From IMG/VR virus record IMGVR_UViG_2541047698_000019: a DNA stretch of 40,640 bases. One strand, given 5' to 3'. A model generated the notes under the pieces. That model was given only the letters and a program-made list of their open reading frames with translations. It was not told the origin of the DNA and made no database searches. The DNA comes from a virus (taxonomy: Duplodnaviria; Heunggongvirae; Uroviricota; Caudoviricetes). The position numbers and the translations under genes were made by a program. Below, piece by piece: positions 1,029-6,583 of the stretch. Numbering within the stretch: the stretch's first letter is position 1; each line of letters opens with the position of its first letter.

Positions 1029-1319
1029 TCTATCAGTGCTATTAGCAGGGAGAGATATCACCGTAGTTTAATGTGTGATTTTTATTTATCGTCGAACCTG
1101 GATTGTTTATCATTGGCCTTAACAAAGCTAACGGCTAATAAGATTATTTCCATCACTTCGTGAGAGCTTCATGCCTTGAGAGGATCTCAATTTTCTTTTG
1201 CAATGAGACAGGCGCTTCCTGTTGTTATGGTATAGTACCCCGCTATTGAGCCTCCTGAACAGTGATGCTGAATAACATAACCCCATGATATATCGATAAA
1301 ATAATCTCTACATTTGAAA

Positions 1320-1423
1320 ATGCACGGTAATTCTGAAATGCAAAAAATCAACCAAACCAGCGCAATGCCTGAAAAAACTGACGTTCACTGGAGTGGTCGG
1401 TTTAGCGTTGCACCAATGCTCGA
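1320..1423 (+). pseudogene. dusA: displaced original 5' end of dusA (about 35 codons) at the distal prophage junction
   Basis: ATG at 1320 opens a frame reading MHGNSEMQKINQTSAMPEKTDVHWSGRFSVAPMLD, about 80 percent identical in DNA to the start of the intact dusA at 39227, then runs into unrelated sequence and stops at 1440-1442. From memory this matches the E. coli K-12 DusA N-terminus. Confidence 0.7.
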
Positions 1424-1567
1424 TAGGATGTACCGTTTTTGAAAAACAAGTAGTTATACACTCTGTGGGAGCCTATTGGGAACCCGGCGTTTTCATTTCA
1501 AGGTGTAATCCATACGCGGCTTAAGAATGAGATATAATGCGATTTTTAGTGTTCCGCTTGAGAGGCC

Positions 1568-2104
1568 ATGATGCTTACCCTGGACGAGATAGGTCAATCA
1601 GTACGTAACAATATCCAGTTGATTATTGATCATGTCGGCTTACCTCTTGCTGTTGGTCCGCTCAGTGATGATGATTACAAGATTCTGTGTGGTGGCTATG
1701 GTGAGCTTGAATGGGACTATGCGTTAAGTACCTATGGCAACTCCAGAGAAAAGTATGAGTTCTGCATAAAACTTGTTCAGCAAGGTCGGGTTCAGGGAAT
1801 ACCATCAGGAGCAGCAATTTGTGTTTATGGGGTTGAAGAAAACATCTTTCGTATCCATATGATCGAAAGGTTTTCTAGAGAAGATGAATCTCACCCATTG
1901 AAAGGGCGCATGGTTTTACTCACTCTTATGAGTGCTTTTATATTTTGTAAAGCTGTTGAATGTAAAGTTGTCCACATTGTAGAGCCAGTACCAGAACTGG
2001 TGCAGTATTACGAGTCTTTTGGTTTCCGCATGGAACAGTGCGGTTATGTGATGTCGGCAGTCATTGATGAGCTGCAGGATATCTTTCTTAAATTTGCTCA
2101 GTAG
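1568..2104 (+). CDS. hypothetical cargo protein, possibly a divergent GNAT-like fold
   Basis: ORF track (178 aa), RBS gagagg upstream of ATG. C-terminal stretch LKGRMVLLTLMSAF...VQYYESFGF is reminiscent of acetyltransferase motifs A/B. Assignment tentative. Confidence 0.5.
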   Translation: MMLTLDEIGQSVRNNIQLIIDHVGLPLAVGPLSDDDYKILCGGYGELEWDYALSTYGNSREKYEFCIKLVQQGRVQGIPSGAAICVYGVEENIFRIHMIERFSREDESHPLKGRMVLLTLMSAFIFCKAVECKVVHIVEPVPELVQYYESFGFRMEQCGYVMSAVIDELQDIFLKFAQ

Positions 2105-2121
2105 GTATAGACGAGAAGGGT

Positions 2122-2134
2122 CTACAAATTGTAG
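2122..2134. repeat. 13-bp perfect palindrome CTACAAATTGTAG just after the 1568-2104 stop
   Basis: Read directly from the sequence; 6-bp arms with a 1-nt centre. Confidence 0.5.
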
Positions 2135-2209
2135 GATACCCGTCCAGATTACCTTAAAGGTACATCTATGGCAGTCGTTTTGTGCTTAAACTACTAAGAA
2201 ACGATGTCA

Positions 2210-2230
2210 CCAATCGACATGATCGATTGG
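2210..2230. repeat. inverted repeat CCAATCGA-catga-TCGATTGG upstream of the small ORF
   Basis: 8-bp perfect arms, 5-nt spacer, read directly. Possible operator. Confidence 0.5.
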
Positions 2231-2300
2231 CATAAGTTAGCGAAACAAGCTAGCTTTAAAGAGAGGGTTAGAGACGCCTTTACTGTCTCGGGAGTTTTCT

Positions 2301-2474
2301 ATGAAAGATCAAAAAGCAACCAAGCCACAGGTTAAGTTCGACACAATGAAAGCATTCGCAGGTATGGGTGCTGCTGTTGAAGTTCTGATGAAGGCTGCTC
2401 CTAATGCGTTCACTCACGCTACTGTCTCTGGTAAAGAGCAGCAGGGTAAGCTTCGTCGTCGCAAAGCAGCATGA
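2301..2474 (+). CDS. small basic hypothetical protein (57 aa)
   Basis: ATG at 2301 preceded by gggag at 6-nt spacing. Translation MKDQKATKPQVKFDTMKAFAGMGAAVEVLMKAAPNAFTHATVSGKEQQGKLRRRKAA. Below the ORF-track size cutoff. Followed by a terminator. Confidence 0.4.
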   Translation: MKDQKATKPQVKFDTMKAFAGMGAAVEVLMKAAPNAFTHATVSGKEQQGKLRRRKAA

Positions 2475-2493
2475 TCATAGCTGGTGCTTTTTG

Positions 2494-2519
2494 AAAACCC
2501 GCCTTTAGGCGGGTTTTTT
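2494..2519. terminator. bidirectional rho-independent terminator
   Basis: aaaa-cccgcc-ttta-ggcggg-tttttt. Sits between the convergent 2301-2474 (+) and 2522-2830 (-) genes. Confidence 0.7.
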
Positions 2520-2521
2520 CT

Positions 2522-2830
2522 TTAGTGATGTTCTTTGCCCTTCTGTTTGCCTGTTCTGACCTGTTCCCACTCGATACGTCCTTCTTCTCGTCTTTTGTCT
2601 ATGTATTCCGCAAGATCCTGAATATTGATGCAACGTTTTGCTTTTTGTGATGTGCCGATGCGATATGTTGGAACGGGCAACTTACAAGCGTTTGCTTTTG
2701 CTTCTGCCGTGGCTGGACTCATGCCAAAGTACTTTTGGCTAACTGCTGAGAGTTCAATGTTAGGGGTATTGAATTCAGCCATCAGTAAAAACAAGGTGTT
2801 CATAATTTTCTCCATCAAAACCGGCTGCAC
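2522..2830 (-). CDS. PrtN-like / excisionase-like small DNA-binding protein
   Basis: 102-aa ORF at the distal end of the leftward early operon. Resembles the pyocin-activator PrtN family often annotated as excisionase in prophages (from memory). Confidence 0.5.
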   Translation of the reverse strand: MQPVLMEKIMNTLFLLMAEFNTPNIELSAVSQKYFGMSPATAEAKANACKLPVPTYRIGTSQKAKRCINIQDLAEYIDKRREEGRIEWEQVRTGKQKGKEHH

Positions 2831-2839
2831 CCGGGAAAA

Positions 2840-3415
2840 TCATAATTCTGTGCTGGTGGCAGGAATTAATTTCTGCCAGATAGCGGAAACATATTTTGCC
2901 TGATGACGGGCATCGGCCAGGGCGTTGTGCCGTTCGCCATCGAAAGGCATGTCCATTTTGGGGTCGAATCCGATGTAACGCCCAAGCGTAACGATCGTGC
3001 GTACATCGTGGTCATTCCAGTATGCCCACGGGCAGATTTGTCCTGCTCGCTCATAAGCTCCACGTAAAATTACGTTGTCGAAGGTGGCCCCGTTACCCCA
3101 GACTTTTAAATATTTCGTATTGGCTGCGTGCCGGTTAATGAAATGATTTAGTTCTGAGAGAGCATCGCTGATCGACAAAGTATCATCAATACAGATTGCA
3201 GCTCGTGCTTCAGTGCTTTGTTTCAACCACCACAGGATGGTATCGCCGTCAGGTGTAGCTCCTTGCCCCATAGCACTTTCCAGGCTAACAACCGTATAGA
3301 ATTCTTGTCCGATGTCTCCGGTTTCTGGAGTGAAGAACACCGCGCCAATGGAAACGATCGGTGCATCCTTATTTTTCCCCATCGTCTCAAGGTCGATCAT
3401 TAAGTTGTTCATCAC
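2840..3415 (-). CDS. 3'-5' exonuclease (DEDDh / DnaQ-like)
   Basis: 191 aa. MIDLETMG...SIGAV near the N-terminus (Exo I motif) and H-x4-D (HNALAD) near the C-terminus. Confidence 0.7.
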   Translation of the reverse strand: MMNNLMIDLETMGKNKDAPIVSIGAVFFTPETGDIGQEFYTVVSLESAMGQGATPDGDTILWWLKQSTEARAAICIDDTLSISDALSELNHFINRHAANTKYLKVWGNGATFDNVILRGAYERAGQICPWAYWNDHDVRTIVTLGRYIGFDPKMDMPFDGERHNALADARHQAKYVSAIWQKLIPATSTEL

Positions 3416-6441: not shown

Positions 6442-6583
6442 AAAAAGAGCGGTACCAGCCGGAAGCAAGGGTACAAACTGGTACCGCCAGGACTACACAC
6501 AGCAATGAAACTATTGCCTGTCTTTTCACCACTTCAGGCTCGGTGGTATGCTGGAGTTCTCACACAGCCAGCAAGGAAACCTA

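Follow-up and report, generated by a model that had tools for sequence, protein, structure and literature searches.

A predicted GNAT-fold protein and a small basic protein form a conserved gene pair in an exchangeable slot of dusA-integrated lambdoid prophages

The window analysed here, a stretch of 40,640 nucleotides filed as the virus record IMGVR_UViG_2541047698_000019 (Caudoviricetes), is a segment of an Escherichia coli chromosome in which a lambdoid prophage is integrated in the 5' end of dusA. Beside the left attachment junction (attL) it carries a cassette of two genes, orf178 (orf177 when counted from its likely start) and orf57, separated by a spacer of 196 bp and followed by an intrinsic terminator (Table 1). 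Both open reading frames, 1568-2104 and 2301-2474, lie on the + strand, opposite to the neighbouring xis and exonuclease genes on the - strand, which confirms what an earlier note on this DNA had read from its letters. That note also called the module uncharacterised, and so it is: neither gene has a match in Pfam, NCBIfam or PADLOC, both PHROG families (4350 for orf178 and 2741 for orf57) are of function unknown, and a literature search by accession and topic found no description of either protein. Neither the proteins nor the RNA of the spacer being described in the libraries and literature searched, the cassette is an undescribed one. Its two genes, encoding a divergent protein of predicted GNAT fold and a small basic protein, form a conserved pair, and we tentatively consider the pair to be related in kind to toxin-antitoxin or phage-defence modules.

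Table 1. Features of the cassette and its surroundings, in positions of the window
Feature	Position	Strand	Basis or remark
Host dusA 5' fragment at attL	1314..1442	+	Open reading frame list; RefSeq truncated tRNA-dihydrouridine synthase; mEp460 comparison
Exchangeable cargo segment (P1, GNAT gene, structured spacer)	1485..2287	+	Homology break points
Candidate promoter P1, -10 TATAAT	1533..1538	+	Conserved TAnAAT hexamer
orf178/177, divergent predicted GNAT-fold protein (mEp460 gp23, WP_000956557, phrog_4350)	1571..2104	+	Open reading frame 1568-2104
Candidate internal promoter P2: TAGACG (2108-2113), 18-nt spacer, TAGGAT (2132-2137)	2108..2137	+	Conserved hexamers
Stem-loop A	2146..2167	+	Conserved core UUACC/GGUAA (2150-2162); outer stem covaries
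Stem-loop M	2169..2209	+	Variable sequence, stem maintained; deleted in two loci
Stem-loop B (CCAAUCGA/UCGAUUGG)	2210..2230	+	Helix 1: 88.5% of cells paired
Stem-loop C	2234..2256	+	Helix 2: 4 of 8 pairs with compensatory changes
Stem-loop D (GAGAC/GUCUC, 2271-2289) and orf57 Shine-Dalgarno GGGAG (2290-2294), directly adjoining	2271..2294	+	Spacer alignment
orf57, conserved small basic protein (mEp460 gp24, WP_000654815, phrog_2741)	2301..2474	+	Open reading frame; homologues
Conserved 3' untranslated region (TAGCTGGTGCTTTTTG) and intrinsic terminator (stem 2493-2518)	2475..2518	+	Conserved with the cassette in all contexts
Phage excisionase xis, PrtN family	2522-2830	-	First backbone gene right of the slot; outside the cassette
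3'-5' exonuclease	2840-3415	-	Phage gene beyond xis

The pairing of the GNAT gene with a small gene downstream holds over a wide range of divergence. In all ~95 fetched loci, orf57 follows an orf178 homologue of at least 64% identity, at a gap of 156-197 nt, and a small open reading frame lies downstream of every examined orf178 homologue with downstream sequence, down to ~21% identity, most of these small frames resembling orf57. Next to the distant GNAT homologues (~21-36% identity; Shewanella, phage or integrative-element contigs) the frame measures 52-92 aa: 56 aa in Shewanella locus L011 (GNAT 36% identical, gap 163 nt, pattern MK.RK...G.A...M.AAP...GKE..G...KAA), 60 aa in L102 (32%, gap 1-2 nt, with an FDT motif, after tail-fibre genes), 58 aa in L110 (34%, gap 143 nt, ending in SKQAA), 52 aa in L105 (24%, gap 110 nt, beside an integrase, ending in PKAA) and 92 aa in L108 (21%, gap 66 nt, after lysis genes), this last one unlike orf57. 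Three of the distant partners share an FDT/helix/AAP pattern and a K-x-AA end. When the diverse partners were used for a profile search, all matches were proteins annotated as 'hypothetical', many of them sharing a contig or adjacent locus tags with GNAT homologues. The association is asymmetric. Among 5,426 complete E. coli genomes the xis family occurs in 741, orf57 in 562 and the GNAT gene in 358 (all at least 99% identical), leaving ~204 in which orf57 stands without the GNAT gene, whereas the GNAT gene without a small open reading frame was never seen in any locus with downstream sequence.

The longest open reading frame of orf178 gives the 178 aa originally assigned to it. The frame itself stands, and its likely start is the second ATG, at 1571, because a GAGAGG ribosome-binding site lies at 1560-1565 and all homologues begin in the same manner (MLTL...); the product then has 177 aa, as is also annotated in RefSeq and in the mEp460 record. 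The ratio of non-synonymous to synonymous substitution (dN/dS), taken only from comparisons with unsaturated synonymous sites, is ~0.05 and indicates purifying selection; orf178 and orf57 both read as real coding genes. The family is small, with 79 representative proteins at E ≤ 0.001 among 1.8 billion in word-indexed and exhaustive hidden Markov model (HMM) searches, and its named members come from Gammaproteobacteria only. orf178 has no Pfam match at E ≤ 1 and no NCBIfam match, and neither orf178 nor orf57 matches a PADLOC-DB 2.0 protein model at E ≤ 1. A single one of 56 family members matches the GNAT sequence model PF00583 (E = 0.0058).

The fold is more telling than the sequence. An AlphaFold2 model built from a 24-sequence alignment (predicted local distance difference test score, pLDDT, 86.5; predicted template-modelling score 0.84) has the topology beta1-alpha1-alpha2-beta2-4-alpha3-beta5-alpha4-beta6, the canonical GNAT order, with an additional N-terminal and C-terminal helix, in agreement with the weak GNAT-like motif noticed earlier. 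Foldseek places AtaT, KacT and TacT3 among the top matches in the PDB, level with RimI, SpeG and NatD, and the structural matches also include Ard1/Naa and RimJ; viral matches are generic GNATs. Within the close family, H96 and E99 on strand 4, H108, P109, L110, G112 and M114, and Y147 in YY.SFGF are invariant; W48 does not vary anywhere in the whole family, and Y147 hardly does. The loop 108-114, H-P-L-K-G-R-M, falls at the usual GNAT position for the CoA pyrophosphate (beta4-alpha3). On the predicted structure, orf178 is thus a GNAT by fold, too divergent for GNAT sequence models and without an assignable subfamily.

The best PDB profile match of the family is to nourseothricin acetyltransferase (E = 0.003), and the sequences of TacT, AtaT and KacT are not among its PDB profile matches. 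One might therefore think of a small-molecule acetyltransferase that detoxifies an antibiotic or anti-phage metabolite (of streptothricin, aminoglycoside or microcin-C type) to the benefit of the lysogen or the phage. We consider this very improbable: the profile matches are marginal and of the sort that any GNAT would give, a resistance enzyme has no need of an obligatory small partner or of the structured leader described below, and the alternative occupants of the slot are toxin-antitoxin modules.

The partner, orf57, is a protein of 57 aa with 9 Lys and 3 Arg, ending in RRRKAA. Across Enterobacterales it is 68-100% identical, with an invariant core FDT..AF.GMGAAVEVLMKAAP (pattern FDT...G.G..V..LMKAAP) of 22 residues, making it far more conserved than the GNAT protein, and its dN/dS of 0.03-0.20 denotes purifying selection. 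No Pfam domain was found in it, and AlphaFold2 predicts a central helix only, with disordered basic ends, at low confidence (pLDDT 61). The tails of orf57 and its counterparts (RRRKAA, KPKAA, SKQAA) resemble the C-terminal ClpX signals of MuA (RRKKAI) and ssrA (...LAA) (PMC8138137, table 1). Synonymous divergence (pS) in orf57 is 0.23-0.43, far below the 0.75-0.93 of the adjacent GNAT gene, and the 18 nt from the orf57 stop codon to the terminator hardly differ between genera. These two features suggest that the segment is constrained at the RNA level, for instance as a small RNA (sRNA) derived from the 3' untranslated region or as an antisense RNA, or that it recombines frequently. A type I toxin-antitoxin system was ruled out, orf57 not being hydrophobic. 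A further frame of 43 aa at 2204-2335 (+) is probably not a gene, as it overlaps stem-loop B and the start of orf57 and has its ATG in a loop that differs from locus to locus.

Upstream of each gene lies a promoter-like element. For P1, a TAnAAT hexamer occurs 37-42 nt before the GNAT start in nearly every locus with upstream sequence and is followed by a GAGG ribosome-binding site; the -35 is weak. For P2, the hexamers TAGACG and TA(G/C)GAT are always 17-18 nt apart in all non-Edwardsiella loci (19-20 distinct spacers aligned) while the sequence between them varies, and in many loci the -35 overlaps the GNAT stop codon. The P2 spacer contains an inverted repeat (2108-2112 with 2120-2124) and, reaching into the -10, one of two elements that the earlier note had described as perfect palindromes and possible operators. 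This one, 2122-2134, is a true 6+1+6 palindrome whose TACA...TGTA motif is found in most, not all, clades, and it may still serve as an operator. The other, 2210-2230, is imperfect, with arms of 8 bp separated by a 5-nt loop, and is better read as a conserved stem-loop with compensatory changes. A third small palindrome, again 6+1+6, lies at 2150-2162; in all, 1400-2560 holds 7 palindromic elements of this kind, as against 2.2 expected from shuffles.

The rest of the spacer is a chain of stem-loops, the loops of which vary while the stems are kept; the sequences of M and C are almost wholly different between clades and still form stems. For B, C and D together, 87% of the alignment cells pair, as against no more than 43% when the partners are slid by 1-3 columns. 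Six of their pairs are changed on both sides, two of these in B, which also has many G-U variants; there are 30 double-change cells as against 10.2 +/- 2.9 in shuffles (0 of 500 reach this number), and the covariation score is 0.280 as against 0.201 in shuffles and at most 0.098 after sliding. These counts come from related sequences, and the structure was drawn from the same sequences. The spacer of the window folds better than its shuffles in RNAfold (z = -3.8 to -3.9), as do most homologous spacers, usually better on the + strand; those of L008, L096, L099 and L100 are weakly better than shuffles, and that of Edwardsiella is not better. Such a chain would form a 5' leader of the small gene.

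Several known kinds of RNA were looked for in this region. Rfam 15 gave no match on the spacer, with only sub-threshold matches, on the terminator, and no tRNA or tmRNA was found. Antitoxin-like repeats of type III were ruled out, the hairpins differing from one another. The spacer is also not sRNA-17, a 193-nt ArcA-regulated sRNA reported from an mEp460-like prophage of E. coli K1 RS218 (PMC7719688), the sequence of which matches the window outside the module. That match, 39 nt at 6449-6487 (+), covers the 5' part of sRNA-17 with one mismatch, and the downstream probe sequence given in the same report is absent, so that the prophage seems to carry a 'degenerate' form of this sRNA.

On its right side the cassette ends in a terminator stem with 11-bp arms and a T-run, clear on the + strand. 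It had been described as bidirectional; on the - strand the stem is followed by a run of only four T and drew no call in the terminator scan, and termination in both directions is no more than plausible. Homology between loci ends right after TAGCTGGTGCTTTTTG and this terminator. The segment 1485-2518, comprising P1, the GNAT gene, the 196-nt spacer, orf57 and the terminator, reads as a self-contained phage moron, its terminator clear and its promoters proposed from nothing more than hexamers conserved in sequence and position. In Lys8385Vzw, SKA5 and many E. coli prophages something else takes its place, and the cassette is found in two slots: between attP and xis, as here, and between the antiterminator Q and holin/lysis in Citrobacter/Salmonella-type and Edwardsiella prophages, where it sits after a terminator that probably corresponds to tR'. 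Both are classical moron slots of lambdoid prophages. The proposal of attachment-site-proximal cargo therefore holds for this prophage, where the genes lie on the opposite strand and end at a terminator, but not as a general tie, since the same cassette occupies the Q-to-lysis slot in other genera. In some Q-to-lysis loci (L012-L015, 9020-10917) the cassette is followed by a conserved 63-aa open reading frame and an N6/N4 DNA methyltransferase, and then by the holin.

The suggestion that the module is variable cargo among related dusA prophages was borne out, as exactly 1485-2287 is replaced by other two-gene modules. Compared with four alternative-cargo prophages, homology stops at 1484 and resumes either at 2288, in variants keeping orf57, or at ~2546-2552. 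The variants that resume at 2288 carry a Panacea-domain antitoxin (PF13274, E = 1.8e-18), a 128-aa protein and orf57 (L019, L020, L113), in one case together with a CoiA-like nuclease gene (L021). Those without orf57 carry a different Panacea protein and a 182-aa protein (L111, resuming at ~2546), or a 189-aa protein and a YafO-family toxin (L112, ~2552). The cargo lies at 2486-3474 in L019, 1910-2954 in L111, 1922-2940 in L112 and 3820-4854 in L021. The alternative cargos seen are, by their predicted products, two-gene modules of toxin-antitoxin type, none of which matches a PADLOC model, and the attP-xis slot of dusA prophages looks like an unexplored hotspot.

This exchange bears on whether the two genes belong together at all. 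It is conceivable that they are independent and only move as neighbours: orf57, along with its leader and terminator, would be a small phage regulatory protein or an RNA element with a role of its own, and the GNAT gene an unrelated moron gene inserted upstream. orf57 is kept with PanAT cargo in the ~204 genomes, the breakpoint falls immediately upstream of its ribosome-binding site, a promoter-like element of its own precedes it, and its low pS and conserved 3' untranslated region suggest RNA-level or recombination constraints of its own. Chance hitch-hiking, however, does not explain a pairing that persists to ~21-36% GNAT identity across at least four genomic contexts, once with the genes 1-2 nt apart, and we regard independence of the two genes as decidedly unlikely.

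The setting of the cassette is that of phage mEp460. Positions 1440-2518 are 99.4% identical to this phage, in which the two genes are gp23 and gp24. On the circular phage map, attP is preceded by dinI and int, which point leftward, and followed by gp23 and gp24, which point rightward; beyond these come xis, exo and the early-left genes, again leftward. Positions 1300-2600 are 99.3-99.7% identical to many E. coli chromosomes, where RefSeq annotates a truncated tRNA-dihydrouridine synthase, two hypothetical proteins and a PrtN-family protein. A base-by-base comparison puts the attL crossover at ~1417-1441: to its left lies host dusA sequence, with scattered differences from the dusA-like 5' segment of mEp460 itself, and to its right near-identity to the phage. 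The promoter and first codons of the dusA fragment are oriented toward the cassette, and the terminator scan of 1314-1568 found no + strand terminator between that fragment and orf178. Integration may therefore switch on or boost transcription of the cargo in lysogens only, from the orphaned host promoter. The host gene upstream of dusA (1-957, +; DUF2713) is intact here and annotated as frameshifted in several other E. coli. The whole module is also 99.5-99.9% identical in four E. coli plasmid records (NZ_CP081716, NZ_CP081794, NZ_CP081704 and NZ_CP126947), the first three of which (37-44 kb, the size of a phage genome) may be circular phage genomes assembled as plasmids.

What might this pair do? 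The reading we lean towards, tentatively and short of calling it probable, is that of a toxin-antitoxin-like or defence/abortive-infection moron in which a GNAT effector is accompanied by a labile small neutraliser, because of the GNAT fold, the obligatory partner, the structured leader, the mobility of the unit, the toxin-antitoxin-like slot and the occurrence of the partner alone but never of the GNAT gene alone. According to this speculation, the GNAT protein would be the effector or toxin, acetylating a cellular or phage target, and orf57 a partner that neutralises or regulates it, maintained in excess through a promoter of its own and a stabilising leader and made labile by a ClpX-type C-terminal degron. 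When synthesis of orf57 stops or the protein is degraded, upon phage infection or loss of the prophage, the GNAT protein would be freed and growth arrested, the outcome being abortive infection, exclusion or stabilisation of the prophage. The orphaned dusA promoter at attL may be a further source of transcription in the lysogen, reading into the cassette. The opposite assignment of roles, with orf57 as a toxin neutralised by the GNAT protein, was ruled out by the intact orf57 genes that stand without it.

A number of observations weigh against such a toxin-antitoxin-like module. On the side of the enzyme, the acetyl-CoA motif Q/RxxGxG/A of orf178 is degenerate (PLKGRM, with only the central Gly kept), the protein matches no GNAT-toxin model and no GNAT HMM at family thresholds, and in structure it resembles toxins no more closely than it does RimI, NatD and SpeG. 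On the side of the partner, orf57 is without an RHH or HTH domain, its ClpX degron is a resemblance only, and it stays intact beside PanAT modules, so that it may have a function of its own. As for the arrangement, the partner lies downstream, the opposite of the TacAT/AtaRT order, and a gap of 196 nt is unusual for a type II operon. A consensus promoter scan called neither P1 nor P2, both being consensus-weak. The strand of the hairpins has mild support: the excess of G-U over A-C (54 vs 30) mildly favours an RNA read from the + strand, which folds better in most, not all, loci. A stronger version of the model, a three-part system in which the GNAT effector, a ClpXP-labile neutraliser and the multi-hairpin leader together sense infection or prophage loss and respond with acetylation-mediated growth arrest, we judge unlikely.

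The same features can be read without any toxicity. The GNAT protein could be a protein or RNA acetyltransferase that remodels a component of the host or of an incoming phage, acting in lysogenic conversion, superinfection exclusion or anti-defence, with orf57 as its substrate, specificity adaptor or activator; AcrVA5, a GNAT anti-CRISPR acting on Cas12a, is a case of a GNAT with an anti-defence role. The best structural matches do include the N-terminal and ribosomal-protein acetyltransferases NatD, Ard1/Naa, RimI and RimJ, the higher conservation of orf57 and its invariant core would fit binding to a conserved cellular target, and transcription of the cassette in the Q-to-lysis slot would go along with that of the late genes, in keeping with a function in lytic growth. 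Yet the other occupants of the attP-xis slot are toxin-antitoxin modules, a neutraliser is a better fit to the degron-like tail and the never-alone GNAT gene, and no target can be named; a non-toxic role is in our view somewhat unlikely.

If the toxin-antitoxin-like reading is true, the cassette would be a GNAT-based defence or toxin-antitoxin-like module of unprecedented layout, in which the effector precedes a tiny domain-less partner and a conserved multi-hairpin leader separates the two. The attP-xis slot would be a sharply bounded cargo hotspot of widespread dusA-integrating lambdoid E. coli prophages, one that can be mined for further systems because each alternative seen is toxin-antitoxin-like and none matches PADLOC. 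Under the three-part version, a new anti-phage or addiction family would be present in ~6.6% of complete E. coli genomes, the share that carries the GNAT gene, and in many Enterobacterales prophages, and the slot would be a defence and toxin-antitoxin hotspot comparable to those of P2 and P4. The carriers include O157:H7, O111 and O145 strains, and a role in phage exclusion or prophage maintenance would bear on the ecology of Stx phages (358 of 5,426 genomes, with major lineages of Shiga toxin-producing E. coli). Whatever the function, the conserved pair and the structured RNA are well-defined and cheap experimental targets in the cultivable phage mEp460.

Among known arrangements, the slot is reminiscent of the defence hotspots of P2 and P4 prophages (Rousset et al. 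2022, PMC9122126), in that a sharply bounded position of the prophage backbone holds alternative small cargo modules; it differs in belonging to a lambdoid, dusA-integrating phage family, in lying between attP and xis, and in cargos that match no PADLOC model. Phage morons are promoter-gene-terminator units, as in HK97/HK022 or bor and lom of lambda (PMC3594210). The cassette likewise stands as an independent unit that has promoter-like elements and a terminator, varies in its presence among close relatives, occupies different genome positions and is transcribed against the flanking operon, but it has two genes and a structured RNA spacer, and its type of cargo is new. Panacea (PanA) antitoxin-toxin modules (Kurata et al. 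2022, PMC8832971) are found in exactly this slot of sister dusA prophages, bounded on the left at 1484 as well, and one variant shares the right end of orf57 plus terminator. Their proteins are unrelated to those of the cassette, and a PanAT module starts with the antitoxin gene and has little distance between its genes.

MqsRA, HigBA and HicAB are type II modules of reverse order in which the antitoxin has its own promoter. The cassette shares with them a larger putative effector in first place, a small partner in second place and a promoter-like element before the second gene; the protein families are unrelated, its partner is without a DNA-binding domain, and to our knowledge the long stem-loop leader has no counterpart in these modules. 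With the GNAT/RHH type II modules (TacAT, AtaRT, KacAT and ItaRT) it has in common a GNAT-fold protein of ~175 aa next to a small protein on a mobile element, GNAT toxins being among the best structural matches of orf178 and the slot being used by toxin-antitoxin modules as well. In contrast to these systems, its GNAT protein has no sequence membership in the toxin clade, its partner of 57 aa lies downstream and lacks an RHH/DUF1778 domain, with no upstream RHH antitoxin encoded by any open reading frame between attL and orf178, and its genes stand 196 nt apart around a structured spacer that contains a promoter-like element of its own. Of the known kinds, the GNAT type II toxin-antitoxin system comes nearest; the cassette differs from it in gene order, type of partner and structured spacer.

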